Positions 8,599 to 19,843 of a stretch of DNA of 64,000 nucleotides are shown here, in pieces; positions within the stretch are counted from its first letter, which is position 1; every line of letters begins with the position of its first letter. A model generated the notes under the pieces. The model saw nothing but the letters and a program-made list of their open reading frames with translations, did not search any database and was not told where the DNA came from. The stretch lies in the IMG/VR virus record IMGVR_UViG_3300020411_000002; one strand, written 5' to 3'. This stretch comes from a virus (taxonomy: Duplodnaviria; Caudoviricetes). A program made the translations under genes and the position numbers.

Positions 8599-9396
8599 AT
8601 GACTGCAAAAACTCGTACACGCACGGCTAAGAAACCCGTTCCTAGAAAAACTAGTAAAGCTCGTAGCGTAAGTCCAGACGATATTACAACTACAACTACG
8701 GCAGAAGAGCCTGCTCGTAAACGTAAATTCAAAGCAAAGAAAGTTCGTGTTAATTCACGCACTGCTAATCGCTCTGGTGATTGGAAGTTGAAAGACTTAA
8801 AAGGTGCTGAATATAATCCACGTATGATTACAGACAGACGCCTTGATAACATGGGTGATTCATACGAGCGCTTTGGTGACTTGTCTGGTATCGTATTTAA
8901 TAGACGTAGTGGTAAGCTGGTATCTGGACACCAACGCGTAGCTAACATCGAGAAGCGCGGCTATCCTACTGCTGTTAAAACTAATCCAACTAAAGACGAT
9001 CATGGTACAGTAGAAGAAGGCGTACTAGCTGTTAAGACAGACAAGGGCGTTATCCGTATTCCAATGCGTGTTGTTGATTGGGAAGACCAAAAAGCAGAAA
9101 TGGCAGCAAACGTTGCAGCCAACGCACACGGTGGTGAGTTCGATAAACAAAAGCTAAGCAAGCTAATGGCAGACTTAGAAGTTATCGAGGGTGGATTCGA
9201 AATTGGTTTAATTGGTTTAGATGAAGTTTCTATTCGCTCACTTCCAAAGTTGCCTGATCGTCCGTCTTCTAGTTCTGAGTCAAGCTCTGGTTCTAGCGGT
9301 TCAAGTAGTCGTCCTGACGGCTTTGATGCGTATGATGAAAGTTCTTTCGATGAACAGCTACAGCACTGCTGTCCTAAATGTGGATTTGAATTCTAA
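8599..9396 (+). CDS. ParB N-terminal domain protein with C-terminal zinc ribbon
   Basis: AEYNPRMI, LVSGHQRV, ANVAANAHGGEFD, terminal CPKCGFEF; the ParB type often found beside phage MTases. Confidence 0.8.
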   Translation: MTAKTRTRTAKKPVPRKTSKARSVSPDDITTTTTAEEPARKRKFKAKKVRVNSRTANRSGDWKLKDLKGAEYNPRMITDRRLDNMGDSYERFGDLSGIVFNRRSGKLVSGHQRVANIEKRGYPTAVKTNPTKDDHGTVEEGVLAVKTDKGVIRIPMRVVDWEDQKAEMAANVAANAHGGEFDKQKLSKLMADLEVIEGGFEIGLIGLDEVSIRSLPKLPDRPSSSSESSSGSSGSSSRPDGFDAYDESSFDEQLQHCCPKCGFEF

Positions 9397-10463
9397 TGAA
9401 GTTACCAGCCAAGTTACCTACTAAAATTCCTACTATTCGGGAAATAAATAAATCTAAGAAATATTTTTTAGGTATTTCTACTTTCTCTGGTGCTGGTGGT
9501 TCTTGTACTGGTCACAAAATGGCTGGTATCGACATTCAGTATGCAAACGAATTTATACCTGCTGCAAAAGAGGTTTATGAGATTAATCATAACTCTTTTT
9601 GTGACGGCTCTGACATTCGTACTGTTAAAGGAAAAGACATTCTTAAACACTTGGGAATTAAGAAAGGTCAACTTCCTTTCATGGACGGTTCGCCTCCATG
9701 TGCATCGTTCTCTACTTCTGGTAAACGTCAAGAAGATTGGGGACAAGAAAAGAAGTACAGTGATACTACTCAACGTACTGATGACCTGTTCTTTGAATAC
9801 GGAAGACTTGTTTCTGAAATTGAACCTTGGGTTTTCTTAGCTGAAAACGTATCTGGTTTAATCAAAGGTGCTGCTCGTGGATACTTCAAAGAGATTACTA
9901 CTTCATTAAAACAGTGCGGTCGTAAAGGTTATACTGTTCAGTGTTTTAGAATTAATGGAAGTTGGTTAGGTGTTCCTCAGAATCGTGAACGTATGATATT
10001 TATCGGCGTTCGTAATGACTTGGTAAAAGCTGCTGGTGTTAAACCTATCGCTCCTATGCCACTTGATAGACAAGTAGCTGTAAAAGAAGTACTTCCACAT
10101 ATTGCTTACATCAAAACTAAAGATGGTGATATGATAAAGTACGTTCCAGCCGATAGACCGTATCCAACTATTATGGCAAGCGATTACAACACTAGTCACA
10201 CTGCACTATTTAGTTCAGGTGGATTTGTAGAAGACAAGAAAGGCACTCAGCGTAAGATGACTGTAAAAGAACTCAAACGCATTTGTACTTTCCCTGACGA
10301 TTATGAAATCACTGGTAGCATTGCTCGTAAGTGGGAGAGACTAGGTCGAAGCGTACCTCCTCTAATGATGTATCACATTACACGTTCTGTAATTGATGGT
10401 ATATTAATTCCAATTGCAGAGCATAAGAAGTTAGATTATACCAAAGGACCTGTTCATGGATAA
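9396..10463 (+). CDS. C5-cytosine methyltransferase homolog, predicted cytosine carboxymethyltransferase
   Basis: Motif I FSGAGG, IV GSPPC, VI AENV, VIII PQNRER; motif X reads GRSVPP instead of GNSV. Confidence 0.9.
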   Translation: MKLPAKLPTKIPTIREINKSKKYFLGISTFSGAGGSCTGHKMAGIDIQYANEFIPAAKEVYEINHNSFCDGSDIRTVKGKDILKHLGIKKGQLPFMDGSPPCASFSTSGKRQEDWGQEKKYSDTTQRTDDLFFEYGRLVSEIEPWVFLAENVSGLIKGAARGYFKEITTSLKQCGRKGYTVQCFRINGSWLGVPQNRERMIFIGVRNDLVKAAGVKPIAPMPLDRQVAVKEVLPHIAYIKTKDGDMIKYVPADRPYPTIMASDYNTSHTALFSSGGFVEDKKGTQRKMTVKELKRICTFPDDYEITGSIARKWERLGRSVPPLMMYHITRSVIDGILIPIAEHKKLDYTKGPVHG

Positions 10464-11229
10464 AGACAACGTAGTTCCACCTGCTAAGTGGGAGTTCAAC
10501 GAAGAAGTAGCTAAATGTTTTGACGATATGTTACAACGGTCAATTCCAAGTTATGAGACAATGCGTTCTCTTACTTGGAACATCATGCATAACTACCATG
10601 TTAAGCAACAGAGCCATGTGCCTGACTTTAACCTGAATCACTTTAGAGGAAGATTCAAGCTTGGTAGCATTCTAGACTTAGGTGCTAGTCGTGGTGAAGC
10701 ACTAAGACCTTTTATTGAATCAGGTCACTATAGCTGTGATGCAATCGAAGTGTCTGAACCTATGCTAGATGTGCTTAAAGAACTGTACGGCGAGTCTGAC
10801 AATGTTAGAATTCACAACATAGATATGCGTAATCCTGAGTTTATTCAGCGCAATACTGATGGTATGCGAAAATCTTTTACCGGCATTCTTAGCATTCTAA
10901 CTATTCAGTTTACGCCTATCGAATATCGTATGGATATTCTACAGGAAATATATGACAGCTTATCAGAGGGCGGTATGTTTATCTTTGTAGAAAAAGTTCT
11001 TGGTAGCGGTGCGCAAATTAACCGTGTAATGGTCAACACTTACCACGACTCTAAGAATGGTAATGGATATAGTCAAGAAGATGTAGAACGTAAGCGCCTA
11101 TCTTTAGAGGGTGTTCTAGTTCCACAAACAGCTAGTGCTAACGAAGAAATGTTAAAGTTAGCAGGCTTCAAACATGTTGACTGTTTTTATAGACACTTAA
11201 ACTTTGCTGGATGGGTGTGTATTAAATGA
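10456..11229 (+). CDS. cmoA: Carboxy-S-adenosylmethionine synthase (CmoA-like)
   Basis: WEFNEEVA.CFDDMLQRSIPSY, LDLGASRG, LTIQF, FVEK, RKRLSLEGV, AGF...LNF follow E. coli CmoA motifs in order. Confidence 0.85.
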   Translation: MDKDNVVPPAKWEFNEEVAKCFDDMLQRSIPSYETMRSLTWNIMHNYHVKQQSHVPDFNLNHFRGRFKLGSILDLGASRGEALRPFIESGHYSCDAIEVSEPMLDVLKELYGESDNVRIHNIDMRNPEFIQRNTDGMRKSFTGILSILTIQFTPIEYRMDILQEIYDSLSEGGMFIFVEKVLGSGAQINRVMVNTYHDSKNGNGYSQEDVERKRLSLEGVLVPQTASANEEMLKLAGFKHVDCFYRHLNFAGWVCIK

Positions 11230-12203
11230 CTAGGAAACGCAAAGCAAGTAAAAGCAAAGACACCGTTATGGTAGACGGTGTTCCTCACGAAGACATTGAG
11301 GGTATGTTAGTTCCTGCGCACTGGAATGAAAACAACAAAAAGAATTGTCGTAAAGTTCGTTCTAGCGTAAAGAAAATGGCAAGCGCACCACCCGACTTAC
11401 GCCATGCTCTTATGGAATCACTATCTTTGTTTGAAGACGATTGCGGTGTTGCATGTTCTGGTGGACTAGATAGTCAAGCAATACTTTGGTCGCTCATTGA
11501 CTTAGGTAAAAAGCCCACTGTATTTAGTGTGTGCTTCGAACATCAGATTAGCTCTGACTTCTTATCTGCTAAACAAACTGCTGAATATTTTGGTCTAGAG
11601 TTTGTTCCAGTGTTCATACCTTATGACGCCGACAAGTACTACAAGTTCCTAAAGTATATAATTCATAAGCAAGGAATTACCAGTAAGCCTAGTATAGAAT
11701 GTTTGTATCCAATGATGCTTCTAATCAAAGAAGCAGAAAAGCGTTGCAGCTATTTAGCTTTTGGGCATGGTGGGGATATCTACTACAATCTAGCGCGTAA
11801 AGCAGAAATGTTTGGTAAAGATATTTTGTACGAATCTAGACTAGCTCAGTTTAGAGGTGGTGGAATTACTTACGGCCCTAAAGGTCAAGAAACTATTCTG
11901 ACTAGATATGCGTTGAAGAAAGGCATTTTTGCAATGTTCCCTTATCTGCTAGCTAACGTGTATGCTCAGTTCCAGACGATGACTACTTGGGAAGAAACCA
12001 ACAAACCTCAAAAGCGAATCGTCAGAGAAACATGGCCTCAACACTTAAAGCCATGTAAAGTTAAGAACCACTCAAACATGCAGTTAGGTGATGGGGACAT
12101 ATCTGGAAATCTCGGTAACTTGATTCTAGATAGTGAGTATAATGTAGGCAATTGGAAAAGCCAAGTTGGGGTCTACAATCACATTGCAAAACAAAAAGTG
12201 TAA
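11226..12203 (+). CDS. Asparagine synthetase-like ATP-dependent amide ligase lacking a glutaminase domain
   Basis: PP-loop ACSGGLDS; FGHGGDIYY (cf. SGEGADELFGGY); MFPYL; 325 aa with no Ntn Cys1. Confidence 0.75.
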   Translation: MTRKRKASKSKDTVMVDGVPHEDIEGMLVPAHWNENNKKNCRKVRSSVKKMASAPPDLRHALMESLSLFEDDCGVACSGGLDSQAILWSLIDLGKKPTVFSVCFEHQISSDFLSAKQTAEYFGLEFVPVFIPYDADKYYKFLKYIIHKQGITSKPSIECLYPMMLLIKEAEKRCSYLAFGHGGDIYYNLARKAEMFGKDILYESRLAQFRGGGITYGPKGQETILTRYALKKGIFAMFPYLLANVYAQFQTMTTWEETNKPQKRIVRETWPQHLKPCKVKNHSNMQLGDGDISGNLGNLILDSEYNVGNWKSQVGVYNHIAKQKV

Positions 12204-15704: not shown

Positions 15705-16967
15705 ATGGCTCGTGGATTTGATAATATTAATCCAAACGCAAACAGTAGAGGAGACAAGCTTAAACCTGAAGAAATTTGGGACTTATTTAAGTTTACTGAC
15801 CAAAGTGGTTATGTCTCTGTTCGCTTTTTGCCAACCGATATCTTACCAGTTAAAACACACTGGATTAAAATCTTAGCAGGCAAAGATAAGAAAGAAATCA
15901 AGATTCCAAAAATTTGTATCAGCTTTGATCCAGATAACGAAGCAGTTGCATTAGATGGTACTGACTGTCCTTATTGCAATCTATCACAAGGTCAAGACGG
16001 TGCGTGTCAAACTTCTACTGCTTATTATGCAAACGTTATAGTGCGTGACTTGCAAGAAGATATGCCGCGTAAGCTGCCGCCACACACTAAGAGTGAAAAA
16101 GAAACTGGATACAAAGATATCAAGTCTCGCTCTTGGACTCCTGTTCGAGTTGTACGTTTACCAGCAGGTCTTGCGGGTAAGATTCAAGAAATGCGTGAGC
16201 GTAACAAAGACAAGAAAGGCAACATGTATCCTGTATCTCATGAAGAGTACGGAATTGACATTGCTATCAAGTTTGATGACAGTAAATCAGGTACGGACAA
16301 GTATCAAATCGATAAAGAAGAGCGCTCTCCTTTAGACGACGAAGAGTTAGACTATCTAACTTATGATTTAAGCGTTGAGTGTATTGATATGCTTGGTCGT
16401 GAAAGTCAGGAACAGGCTGACACCGAATTTAAACGTCTTGATATTGTCGGTGAAGATGAAATCGAAGATGATGAAGACGATGAAGAAGATGATTTACCTC
16501 GTCGTAGTAAGAAAGGCAGTAAAGGTCGTCGCCGTGCATCAGTAGATGACGAAGATGAAGAAGATGAAGAAGATGATGAAGAAGATGATCTTCCACGTAG
16601 TCGTAGAGGTAAAAAGTCTTCTAGCCGTCGCTCTCGCCGCAGTTCAATTGATGAAGACGATGACGAAGATGAAGACGAAGACGAAGACGAAGAAGAGTCT
16701 CGTAGCTCTCGCCGTAGTAAACGTTCTTCTTCACGATCTAGCCGTCGCAGCCGTCGCAGTGAGCCAGAAGATGACGAAGATGAAGACGAAGATGATGAAC
16801 CTCGTTCTAGACGTAGTAAACGTTCTTCGACCAAGACTTCTAGCAGTAGAAGACGACGCGCACCTGTAGACGAAGAAGAAGATGAAGATGATGAACCTCG
16901 TTCTCGCCGTTCTCGTACATCTTCTAAGACTCGTTCAAGCTCTCGTTCTCGTTCTCGTAGACGATAA
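15705..16967 (+). CDS. T4 gp32-like single-stranded DNA-binding protein with long D/E and R/S tail
   Basis: VRFLP, HWIK, CPYC, YYANVIVR motifs; directly upstream of RecA. Confidence 0.7.
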   Translation: MARGFDNINPNANSRGDKLKPEEIWDLFKFTDQSGYVSVRFLPTDILPVKTHWIKILAGKDKKEIKIPKICISFDPDNEAVALDGTDCPYCNLSQGQDGACQTSTAYYANVIVRDLQEDMPRKLPPHTKSEKETGYKDIKSRSWTPVRVVRLPAGLAGKIQEMRERNKDKKGNMYPVSHEEYGIDIAIKFDDSKSGTDKYQIDKEERSPLDDEELDYLTYDLSVECIDMLGRESQEQADTEFKRLDIVGEDEIEDDEDDEEDDLPRRSKKGSKGRRRASVDDEDEEDEEDDEEDDLPRSRRGKKSSSRRSRRSSIDEDDDEDEDEDEDEEESRSSRRSKRSSSRSSRRSRRSEPEDDEDEDEDDEPRSRRSKRSSTKTSSSRRRRAPVDEEEDEDDEPRSRRSRTSSKTRSSSRSRSRRR

Positions 16968-19843
16968 TGCCAGCACGAACTACAAAGGCGGCTGAGACTA
17001 CAACTCGCCGTCGCCGTCGTTCTACTAGCGTAGCAGCGACCGAGACAACAGGTGTGAGCAAGCCTAAATCTGCTCGTAGTACCAAGCAGGAAGTAGTAGA
17101 AAACAATAAAGAGTTTTTTGATATCGGTCAAATGCTTGATGAACTTCAAGATGAAACTGATAAGAAATACGGACTTGTAAGCTCAGTACTTGAACGCTCT
17201 AGTGACCGAATGAGTACAGGTATTTTATCTTTGGACTTGTTGCTATATGGTGGTATTCAGCCAGGCGGTTGGTATACTATTTACGGTCCTGAGCAAAGTG
17301 CAAAGTCTACTCTTGCTATGACTATTCTTGCACAAGCGTTACATGCACGAATGACTAAAGGTTCTAAGTTTGCTTGTGGTATCTTTGACTACGAAGGTTC
17401 TGTAGATGAAGAATACACTGGTAACATTATCAAGTCATTGGGCATTAAAGGTAATGCAGCGCAAATCTTTGGTGTACGTGATGATGACGGTGGTTGGGAA
17501 ATTCCTCCTCTTGCTCGTTATTACTCACACGATGTTGGTGATGACTTCTTTAAAGCTCTAGCCAAAATTCGCCGTGGACTTCCAGACAAACAAACGATTA
17601 ACGGCGAGCCGTGTTATCTATTTGAACACACGAAAGCTAACAAGTCTAAGTTTGCTGGAATGTACGATACCAAGTACTTGTCTCGTAACAACAAGATTAA
17701 AGTACCTGCACCAGACGGCTTCATGCAAGGTTTATACTTGTGTGACTCTTATCCAGCTATGTTACCAGATGGTCTTGATGACGATGACCGTAACAGTGGT
17801 ATGGCAGAGCAAGCTCGTATGTTCAGTGAGGGTATCAAAAAAGTTAAAGGCGGTATGCGTAAGAAAGCAATGACTGTAATTGGTATTAACCAGTTGCGTC
17901 TACGTCCAGCGACTATGTTTGGTAATCCTGAATACGAACCGTGTGGTGAAGCGTTGAAGTTTTTCTGCTTCCATCCTACAACAAACCTCTTTACTAAAGA
18001 TGGTCTTGTAACAGGACAGGAGTTTTACGATTCTGGAAGCATGTCTAAGATTCTAGGATCTAAAGGACTTGAGAAACCTACTATCTTTGATAGTACGGGC
18101 TACAGTCAGATTAGTTGTCTAACTACTGAACTTGGTAACTTTATCAAAGCTAAACCTGGACATAGAACACTCTCTATTCAAAATAGAGGCTGTATGCCTG
18201 AATGGACAAAGTTGTCCAGCTTTACAGGCACTGTAGATCGTTATGTTCCTGTTAAAGTAGGTAGTGATATTTGGTCAGATACTGATGCACTATTAGATTT
18301 TGAATCTTTTTCAAAGTATGATAATGATGTTTGTATATCCAGTGTTCCTGAATCAATGTCACCTAAGTTAGCGTATGTTCTAGGCTCTTTATGCGGCGAT
18401 GGTCATGTTCCAGGTACTGGTGTTATTCATTTTGTTACTCAAGACGAAGATACAATGGACTTCTTCTTAGAATGTTTCGAGGAATCGTTTTCATTATCAG
18501 GTCTTGAGTACAGACAGGTAGATAATAAGTTTGAATTCAGCTTATCTAGTCGTAGGATTTCTAACTTCTTAGGTTACTTAGGTTCTACAGGTACTTCCCG
18601 AACTAAGTCTGTTCCTTGGGCAGTCAGAACCTCTACTAAGAAGTCATGTTTGATGTTCTTACGAGGCTTGTTTGACTCAGACGGTAATGTAGGCCCTAAA
18701 GGTATAGGTCTTTCAACAACATCTAAATTGCTTTCCGAGCAAGTACACTTAATGTTGTTGAACTTGGGATGTATTGCTAGACTGAAACGTAAAGACCATG
18801 ATTACCATGAGCATAAAGAACTGAATGCGGTTTATAACATAAGCTGTAGTGGTTCAAATGCTGTACGTTTGTATGAATCCGTAGGTTTAACTTCCGCTCG
18901 AAAAGCAGAAGCCTTTGAATCTAAAAGTACTGGCGATCATACTCATAATGAAATGTATTCTCTTGATCTAATACCTTTTGATGTTTTACCTACTGGTAGA
19001 CAGAAGTTTCAAAAGCTTGAGGGTCTTTTGGCGGAATGCAAAGGAAGAGGAGCTTATTATCGCATTAGCCGCTTTACAGAGGATTGGTTTGATGAAGCAT
19101 TTGGTTTTGTTGAGACTTTACGTACCGAGCATGAACGTGAAAAGTATCAAAACTTTCTTATTACACTAAGTAAGTTTATAGACTACACTAGCGAAAATTC
19201 TTTGTTCTGGACAAAAGTTGTTTCTGTAGACCATAACCTAGAGCGTTCGATGACCTATGATGCTAACATGCCTAAAACACATTCAATTGTGACTAACGGT
19301 ATTGTTTCTCATAACTCCGATGTTCGAATCAAGTCTACTCCACGCAGCACAGGTCCTAGCGGTTTCGTTGTTAATAAAGGAATCGTTGAAGAGCCTAGCG
19401 TTACTGGAAGAGGAAAAGACACTTACCGCTTCTTGCGTTTAAAGACTACTAAGAACAAACTTGGTGGTATGCCACAGCAAGAATGTTGGGCACGTATCTG
19501 GATATCTGATGGTACTGGTACTGCTCGGGGTCTTGACCCAGCGTTTGATACGTTTGAGTATCTTTCACTTCTTGGAATGGTTAGCGGAAACAAAAACAAT
19601 TACAAGTTTAGTGAAGATTGCCCACTTCACGGTGCTAAGAAAATCGATTGGATTACATTTAAGAAACTAGTTCTTTGTTCTCCAAAAGAAGTCAAAGCAA
19701 TTTGTGAAGAGCAAGGTATTAAACCTGTTAAGATTCGCGATTGGTGTCAAAAGCGTTGCGCTAACGGAAGTCATCCTAAGTTGTTCAAAGAAATCTTGGT
19801 GTCTGCTGCTACAGGTGGTAAGAAGTCTGACGATGATGAATAA
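16967..19843 (+). CDS. recA: RecA/UvsX recombinase interrupted by an intein
   Basis: STGILSLDLLLYGG, YGPEQSAKST Walker A, DSYPAM, INQLR, GEALKFF|SDVR, KTTKNK. Confidence 0.9.
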   Translation: MPARTTKAAETTTRRRRRSTSVAATETTGVSKPKSARSTKQEVVENNKEFFDIGQMLDELQDETDKKYGLVSSVLERSSDRMSTGILSLDLLLYGGIQPGGWYTIYGPEQSAKSTLAMTILAQALHARMTKGSKFACGIFDYEGSVDEEYTGNIIKSLGIKGNAAQIFGVRDDDGGWEIPPLARYYSHDVGDDFFKALAKIRRGLPDKQTINGEPCYLFEHTKANKSKFAGMYDTKYLSRNNKIKVPAPDGFMQGLYLCDSYPAMLPDGLDDDDRNSGMAEQARMFSEGIKKVKGGMRKKAMTVIGINQLRLRPATMFGNPEYEPCGEALKFFCFHPTTNLFTKDGLVTGQEFYDSGSMSKILGSKGLEKPTIFDSTGYSQISCLTTELGNFIKAKPGHRTLSIQNRGCMPEWTKLSSFTGTVDRYVPVKVGSDIWSDTDALLDFESFSKYDNDVCISSVPESMSPKLAYVLGSLCGDGHVPGTGVIHFVTQDEDTMDFFLECFEESFSLSGLEYRQVDNKFEFSLSSRRISNFLGYLGSTGTSRTKSVPWAVRTSTKKSCLMFLRGLFDSDGNVGPKGIGLSTTSKLLSEQVHLMLLNLGCIARLKRKDHDYHEHKELNAVYNISCSGSNAVRLYESVGLTSARKAEAFESKSTGDHTHNEMYSLDLIPFDVLPTGRQKFQKLEGLLAECKGRGAYYRISRFTEDWFDEAFGFVETLRTEHEREKYQNFLITLSKFIDYTSENSLFWTKVVSVDHNLERSMTYDANMPKTHSIVTNGIVSHNSDVRIKSTPRSTGPSGFVVNKGIVEEPSVTGRGKDTYRFLRLKTTKNKLGGMPQQECWARIWISDGTGTARGLDPAFDTFEYLSLLGMVSGNKNNYKFSEDCPLHGAKKIDWITFKKLVLCSPKEVKAICEEQGIKPVKIRDWCQKRCANGSHPKLFKEILVSAATGGKKSDDDE
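17966..19315 (+). mobile_element. 450-aa LAGLIDADG homing-endonuclease intein in RecA
   Basis: Starts CFHP after ALKFF; ends NGIVSHN before Ser; LAGLIDADG blocks LGSLCGDG and LRGLFDSDG. Confidence 0.92.

Follow-up and report, generated by a model that had tools for sequence, protein, structure and literature searches.

Here, we describe a predicted DNA cytosine C5-carboxymethyltransferase of the CmoX type, encoded on the plus strand (9396..10463; 355 amino acids) of a 64,000-nucleotide stretch of viral DNA (Duplodnaviria; Caudoviricetes; IMG/VR record IMGVR_UViG_3300020411_000002), which is referred to as the window in the following. With a probability that we put at roughly 0.88, this gene specifies the CmoX of an uncultured marine jumbo phage, acting by the mechanism set out below with carboxy-S-adenosyl-L-methionine (carboxy-SAM or Cx-SAM) in place of S-adenosyl-L-methionine (SAM). 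A sequence-only reading of the window had singled out an arginine, R318, in methyltransferase motif X, and had proposed that this residue, in an enzyme encoded beside a cmoA gene, marks a carboxy-SAM-dependent DNA carboxymethyltransferase. The residue identities, alignments, predicted fold, gene neighbourhood and co-occurrence observed for the window support this proposal, and the activity itself has been demonstrated experimentally for SpCmoX (PDB entry 8YF3), an enzyme of Synechococcus phage S-B43 that is about 40% identical to the window protein (Yang et al., Nat Commun 2025;17:281, PMC12783734).

In profile searches, the product of 9396-10463 matched PF00145 (E 3.2e-46) and TIGR00675 (E 1.3e-39), and its best sequence match in the PDB was SpCmoX itself (8YF3, E 5e-53), to which it is 40.5% identical in a global alignment. 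An AlphaFold2 model, computed from an alignment with 40 homologues, reached a mean predicted local distance difference test score of 91.1. When this model was compared with the PDB using Foldseek, 8YF3 again came first (E 8e-28, template modelling scores 0.72/0.76), followed by M.HaeIII and M.HhaI, with M.MpeI (4DKJ) at rank 42. As the sequence-only reading had stated, catalytic motifs IV, VI and VIII are intact, being present as SPPC, ENV and QNRER, respectively. Motif IV (S99-P100-P101-C102, 9690-9701) contains the catalytic cysteine C102, the counterpart of SpCmoX C98 and M.HhaI C81, and is invariant in all 121 aligned sequences; its four residues map one to one on S95-P96-P97-C98 of SpCmoX. 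In motif VI (E150-N151-V152, 9843..9851), E150 and N151 show no variation across the same 121-sequence alignment, and V152 shows none in alignments of 40 and 44 sequences. The glutamine and both arginines of motif VIII (Q195-N-R197-E-R199, 9978..9992) are likewise invariant among the aligned homologues. Residues F25, E47, F48 and D69 of SpCmoX, which contact Cx-SAM in its crystal structure (PMC12783734), correspond in the global alignment to F30, E52, F53 and D73 of the window protein, all four being identical; every cofactor-binding and catalytic residue named for SpCmoX is thus retained.

Motif X reads LGRSVPP (10341..10361), and translation of the reading frame bears out both the position and the number given earlier for its arginine, R318, which is encoded by CGA (10347-10349) within the peptide ...ERLGRSVPPLMM... 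and stands where asparagine is conserved. The equivalence to the motif X asparagine, on which the proposal depends, was recovered by several alignments. In HMMER pairwise alignments with PDB sequences, R318 lies opposite the asparagine of "GNAVP" in M.HaeIII and opposite Asn304 of "FGNSV" in M.HhaI (numbering counted from the alignment), and in both the HMMER and the global pairwise alignments it lies opposite Arg350 of 8YF3_A, within "VGRMVPPLMM". A MAFFT alignment of 12 phage enzymes placed it in the same column as the motif X asparagine, with asparagine in the enzymes of Burkholderia phage PL2b and Thermus phage P23-45 (gp14), in a phi3T-type enzyme and in SPbeta MtbP, and arginine in the window enzyme and those of PaBG, S-B43, S-CRM01, TurkishDelight and Mcat8. 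M.MpeI (4DKJ) was never among the phmmer matches of CmoX, whether the full protein or its C-terminal 67 amino acids (E <= 10) served as query, and the equivalence of R318 and M.MpeI N374 is taken from the literature together with the alignment to M.HhaI N304. R318 is neither a sequencing artefact nor a mutation confined to one strain: 69 public contigs encode the identical protein, and 118 of the 121 sequences aligned have arginine at this position.

The biochemistry available for S-B43 gives this arginine a function. In that phage, SAM and prephenate are the substrates from which CmoA forms carboxy-SAM, and SpCmoX transfers the carboxymethyl group onto C5 of cytosine at GC sites to yield 5-carboxymethylcytosine (5cxmC), the wild-type enzyme accepting Cx-SAM but not SAM (PMC12783734). 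In the crystal structure, Arg350 touches the carboxylate/carboxymethyl group of the cofactor, and the R350N variant shows activity with neither SAM nor Cx-SAM (PMC12783734). An asparagine-synthetase-like ligase, CmoY, then couples glycine to the 5cxmC carboxyl; 5cxmC and 5gcxmC were detected in vitro, in E. coli and in phage DNA, the DNA of S-B43 carries the glycine amide, and protection from HhaI was demonstrated for the S-B43 homologue (PMC12783734). Cofactor specificity, the arginine-carboxylate contact, the product and the protection are properties established for the S-B43 system alone (PMC12783734), and by analogy the phage of the window would use the same chemistry, with R318 predicted to pair with the carboxylate of Cx-SAM. 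The term "selectivity switch", used for R318 in the sequence-only reading, holds only in part: the arginine is needed for Cx-SAM use, but it does not act as a reversible one-residue toggle, given that SpCmoX R350N is dead with either cofactor. By the same analogy, it is very unlikely that an R318N variant of the window enzyme would keep carboxymethylation, and such a variant would not be expected to act as a methyltransferase either.

We next consider how widely the arginine is conserved and whether it travels with CmoA. The homologue alignment comprised the window CmoX and the top 120 of 5,410 homologues, and position 318 of these 120 is arginine in 117, asparagine in two and methionine in one. 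By comparison, the canonical phage C5-methyltransferase family represented by Thermus phage P23-45 gp14 has asparagine at the motif X position in 80/80 sequences. Co-occurrence was assessed at viral-contig loci of three enzyme families, including flanks of up to 6 kb, with CmoA-like genes sought by tblastn (E < 1e-5) using the divergent CmoA proteins of the window, PaBG, S-B43 and TurkishDelight as queries; gp14 of P23-45 served as the Asn-type control, a Burkholderia phage Asn-type query having retrieved no viral contigs. A CmoA-like gene was found within this distance at 90/96 Arg-type loci, as opposed to none of 80 Met-type loci (the Flavobacterium phage Fpv11 family, GMSVPP) and none of 80 Asn-type loci (the P23-45 gp14 family, GNAVPP). 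Fisher's exact test of the Arg-type loci against the controls gives p = 5e-61, a value which overstates the evidence because the loci are related to each other. The suggestion that G[RK]SV enzymes would co-occur with CmoA across phages is thus borne out for arginine (90/96 vs 0/160), while no natural counterpart was seen for its lysine half, lysine being absent from position 318 in all 127 aligned sequences of the Arg clade. Two loci call for comment on quality: the alanine read at this position in locus L082 proved to be a local tblastn misalignment and no real variant, and locus L103 holds an incomplete gene.

In a maximum-likelihood tree of 155 sequences, the SPPC enzymes all belong to a single clade, which has 100% support in the Shimodaira-Hasegawa-like approximate likelihood ratio test. 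Within the Arg clade, arginine was lost at least three times, in P0050 (Asn), in P0081 (Asn) with its sister P0041 (Met), and in L006 (Leu), the variant loci being L086:938-2779 (P0050), L083:1308-2327 (P0081), L006:1012-1968 and P0041. No CmoA was detected on the 5-8 kb contigs that bear these four non-Arg relatives. These variants seem to have reverted towards the use of SAM, and they would be useful natural controls for the residues of the cofactor pocket.

A second pocket residue departs from the canonical pattern. Directly after SPPC (stretch 9690..9704, plus strand), A103 replaces the glutamine of the canonical PCQ sequence, which corresponds to Gln82 of M.HhaI. Each of the 127 Arg-type sequences combines Ser99 with a residue other than glutamine at 103, whereas the canonical controls have glycine and glutamine at these positions (Gly-Pro-Pro-Cys-Gln or similar), and the Asn-type revertant P0050 has regained the motif IV glutamine. 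By sequence comparison, the natural pocket accordingly differs in at least two conserved residues, with motif IV glutamine changed to alanine, serine or lysine and motif X asparagine changed to arginine.

The window CmoX is the second of four cassette genes on the plus strand, all of which overlap their neighbours: by 1 nucleotide between the ParB-like gene and CmoX, where the stop of the former overlaps the ATG of the latter, by 8 between CmoX and CmoA, and by 4 between CmoA and CmoY, where the ATGA start of CmoY overlaps the CmoA stop. The third gene (10456..11229, 257 amino acids) encodes a CmoA-type carboxy-SAM synthase (TIGR00740, E 1.2e-34) that matches the CmoA structures 4GEK and 1IM8 with E values of about 5e-22 (4e-22 for 4GEK). 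In E. coli CmoA, Arg199 forms a salt bridge to the carboxylate of Cx-SAM and is a residue absent from ordinary SAM methyltransferases (PMC3663124). Its equivalent in the window is R214 (11095-11097, plus strand), which lies in an ungapped C-terminal block opposite residue 213 of the 4GEK chain (native R199).

The fourth gene (11226..12203, 325 amino acids) encodes a CmoY-like ATP-dependent amide ligase with an asparagine-synthetase C-terminal domain (PF00733, E 1.2e-7 over residues 72-184; phrog_26038, E 7.6e-62) and a PP-loop SGGLDS at residues 78-83 (11457-11474, plus strand); a match to an N-terminal glutaminase domain was not found in this protein. It is homologous to SpCmoY (tblastn E 2e-18; 31% identity over residues 71-288), relative to which it is extended by about 70 amino acids at the N terminus and also has an additional C-terminal segment. 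Its closest relatives are homologues from Erwinia phage Y3 and Salmonella phage Sen-NF (37% identity), and it falls in a PHROG-level group (phrog_26038) different from that of SpCmoY. The first gene of the cassette (8599..9396, 265 amino acids) encodes a ParB-like protein with a ParB N-terminal domain, assigned through phrog_620, "ParB-like partition protein" (E 8.7e-27); it had no Pfam or NCBIfam match at E <= 0.01.

Taken together, these data suggest the following model. The downstream CmoA would turn SAM and prephenate into carboxy-SAM, which CmoX would bind with the guanidinium group of Arg318 paired with the cofactor carboxylate. Ordinary C5-methyltransferases have an asparagine at this position, next to the methyl group. 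With the cytosine flipped out, Cys102 would attack its C6, and C5 would receive the carboxymethyl group, giving 5cxmC in phage DNA. CmoY would subsequently adenylate the 5cxmC carboxyl and join an amine to it, as with glycine in S-B43, and DNA modified in this way would probably resist host restriction enzymes.

Several points weigh against this model. Identity to the characterised SpCmoX is only about 40%, and the sequence specificity of the window enzyme may differ from that of SpCmoX because the target-recognition region between motifs VIII and IX (~218-256) fails to align between the two proteins. The window CmoA scores below the equivalog cut-offs of TIGR00740 (120.1 vs 193.3 bits) and PRK15451 (80.7 vs 285), although no other family comes close to CmoA as a match for this product (E 1.2e-34) and SpCmoA, which is proven to be active, is similarly divergent (29% identity to the window CmoA). 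The co-occurrence counts are phylogenetically non-independent, amounting to three families and about four independent losses, and some of the non-Arg contigs are so short (5-6 kb) that a distant CmoA is possible. The CmoA and CmoY genes of Erwinia jumbo phages are located ~20 kb away from CmoX; an adjacent CmoA is usual, not obligatory, for Arg-type enzymes.

An ordinary SAM-dependent 5-methylcytosine methyltransferase that tolerates its motif X residue, accompanied by an unconnected CmoA acting on host tRNA (uridine 5-oxyacetic acid, cmo5U) or depleting SAM, appears highly improbable. All catalytic motifs of a C5-methyltransferase are intact in the protein, as this view would have it, and the engineered variants M.MpeI N374K and M.MedI N377K, which carry lysine at the motif X position, keep some or all of their SAM methylation (PMC12015181), but the natural homologue SpCmoX takes Cx-SAM only (PMC12783734). 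Neither the presence of arginine in 118/121 sequences nor the contrast between 90/96 Arg-type loci with a nearby CmoA and 0/160 control loci is expected of a tolerated substitution beside an unconnected gene, and the overlaps among the cassette genes likewise speak against it. In addition, Gln82 of M.HhaI, needed for efficient methyl transfer (PMC3526304), is Ala103 here.

We regard it as equally improbable that the enzyme uses carboxy-SAM on another substrate, such as RNA, single-stranded DNA or host DNA in a toxin-like activity, or in another sequence context, with a physiological effect unlike that in S-B43. The unaligned residues ~218-256 leave room for this, the target sequence has been determined for SpCmoX (GC) only, and no role is known for the ParB-like partner (PMC12783734). 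Against another substrate, however, the fold and all motifs match DNA enzymes, with M.HaeIII, M.HhaI and DNMT1 as next-best matches, the CmoY partner acts on 5cxmC in DNA in S-B43 (PMC12783734), and the cassette lies among genes for replication and recombination, including a PD-(D/E)XK nuclease, a single-stranded DNA-binding protein and a UvsX-like recombinase.

Within the carboxymethyltransferase model, the final product itself may be new. We consider it possible, though the less probable outcome, that the phage makes an undescribed cytosine adduct in which CmoY attaches an amine other than glycine, and the CmoX target could also differ from GC. The possibility of another amine is suggested by the ~31% identity of CmoY to SpCmoY, its extra segments and its assignment to a different PHROG group.

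Further observations concern the diversity of CmoX loci in other phages. The CmoX homologue of Erwinia phages matches in two pieces over about 2.07 kb (KY448244.1 26405-28477; MW366843.1 30061-32130), the break adjoins the catalytic SPPC (query residue about 101/102), and its PHROG profile has 715 positions, an arrangement that could be accounted for by an intein or another kind of insertion. Moraxella phage Mcat8 (40.7 kb; host Moraxella catarrhalis) encodes an Arg-type homologue with the motif GRMVAP (L107:3986-5056); no phage CmoA was found in the locus, and the by-organism tally of phage CmoA matches held no Moraxella record. The Mcat8 enzyme presumably relies on host CmoA for carboxy-SAM, in agreement with published evidence that this cofactor can be provided by host CmoA (PMC12783734). 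Streptomyces phage TurkishDelight (L106:2323-7351) carries two ParB-like genes, an Arg-type CmoX, a CmoA-like methyltransferase and a full-length ligase of 466 amino acids with a glutamine-amidotransferase domain; a cassette of this type has been predicted, as a prediction only, to yield the simple amide 5-carbamoylmethylcytosine (PMC12783734).

The Met-type family (GMSVPP) includes enzymes of Flavobacterium phage Fpv11 (L109:3923-4990) and phage tooticki6-1 (L111:2920-4047) as well as loci L114-L193. It has 442 relatives in viral contigs by tblastn, the motif X residue having been read in the best 80 and in the two phage records. Its members keep the CmoX-like SPPC and are without the motif IV glutamine, and on the tree the family forms a long branch that lies either next to the Arg-type clade or within it.

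With regard to the source of the window, the contigs bearing the exact CmoX protein derive from Tara, JGI, ENA, Logan and NCBI data, and the longest measures 244,121 nucleotides. The window's most likely source is a widespread marine jumbo phage, as yet uncultured, of about 244 kb. A megablast search of the phage collection with 24 kb found no near-identical cultured phage, the only match being one of 71 nucleotides to Phage NCTB. Genes around the cassette encode the PD-(D/E)XK nuclease already mentioned, a sigma factor, a gp32-like single-stranded DNA-binding protein (15705-16967; phrog_15004) and, directly after the latter, a 958-amino-acid protein (16967-19843) in which a UvsX-like recombinase N-terminal part is joined to a C-terminal match to endonuclease families, an unusual fusion.

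Overall, these results indicate that the published combination of SPPC and a motif X arginine rightly points to DNA modification dependent on carboxy-SAM in this marine jumbo phage, which is widespread and uncultured. Yang et al. surveyed homologues carrying SPPC and the R350 equivalent and found 5,615, with 4,257 CmoA, 2,251 ligase and 1,660 ParB-domain genes on the same contigs (PMC12783734); our co-occurrence counts and tree provide an independent check on these published bioinformatics. The link between the arginine and carboxy-SAM is no longer new, having already been published for the homologue, and the route to novelty is the final adduct and the target motif rather than the switch residue. 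As for annotation, genes of this type should be named "DNA cytosine carboxymethyltransferase" instead of "DNA cytosine methylase", and their neighbour "carboxy-SAM synthase" instead of "tRNA methyltransferase".

The first known system for comparison is that of S-B43. SpCmoX and the window CmoX have the same fold, the SPPC motif and the motif X arginine (R350 = R318), and both are partnered with CmoA and an asparagine-synthetase-like ligase devoid of a glutaminase domain. Gene order, however, is CmoA-CmoY-CmoX in S-B43 and ParB-like-CmoX-CmoA-CmoY in the window, and the S-B43 locus is without a ParB-like gene, a tblastn search with the window ParB-like protein giving no match there. The phages differ as well, S-B43 being a T4-like cyanophage and the source of the window a PaBG-like marine jumbo phage, and so do their hosts.

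The closest cultured relative of the cassette is that of Pseudomonas jumbo phage PaBG (KF147891, PaBG_00176-00180), which shares with the window the order ParB-like/CmoX/CmoA/ligase and the motif GRSVPP. Identities between the two amount to 52.9% for CmoX, 41.8% for CmoA and 48% for the ParB-like protein, which occupies the same position in both cassettes. PaBG departs from the window in having an extra 150-amino-acid open reading frame between CmoA and the ligase, and its ligase is 29% identical to that of the window. The genes of the PaBG cluster are annotated as ParB-like, DNA cytosine methylase, CmoA and asparagine synthase.

A further parallel is provided by the engineered enzymes M.MpeI N374K and M.MedI N377K, CpG methyltransferases adapted to carboxy-SAM, which, like the window CmoX, have a positively charged side chain at the position of the motif X asparagine; in the engineered enzymes this side chain allows 5cxmC to be formed (PMC12015181, PMC12783734). 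The M.MpeI substitution is given correctly in the sequence-only reading (PMC12015181; discussion in PMC12783734); its lysine was described as salt-bridged to the cofactor carboxylate (PMC12015181), and Yang et al. remarked that the natural arginine "strikingly mirrors" it (PMC12783734). The engineered enzymes carry lysine, keep SAM activity, target CG and are weak carboxymethyltransferases (PMC12015181), whereas the natural enzymes carry arginine, and SpCmoX is exclusive for Cx-SAM and targets GC. In M.HhaI, a SAM-dependent GCGC methyltransferase, Gln82 and Asn304 line the pocket for the transferable group and have been engineered for bulkier cofactors (PMC3526304). Both pocket positions altered in the M.HhaI variant Q82A/Y254S/N304A are those naturally changed in the window enzyme (Ala103 and Arg318), although the variant has alanine instead of arginine at the second of them and takes synthetic propargylic cofactors (PMC3526304). 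For engineering, it is of relevance that nature uses arginine rather than lysine and also drops the motif IV glutamine, a combination which may explain why single-residue variants are weak or bifunctional.

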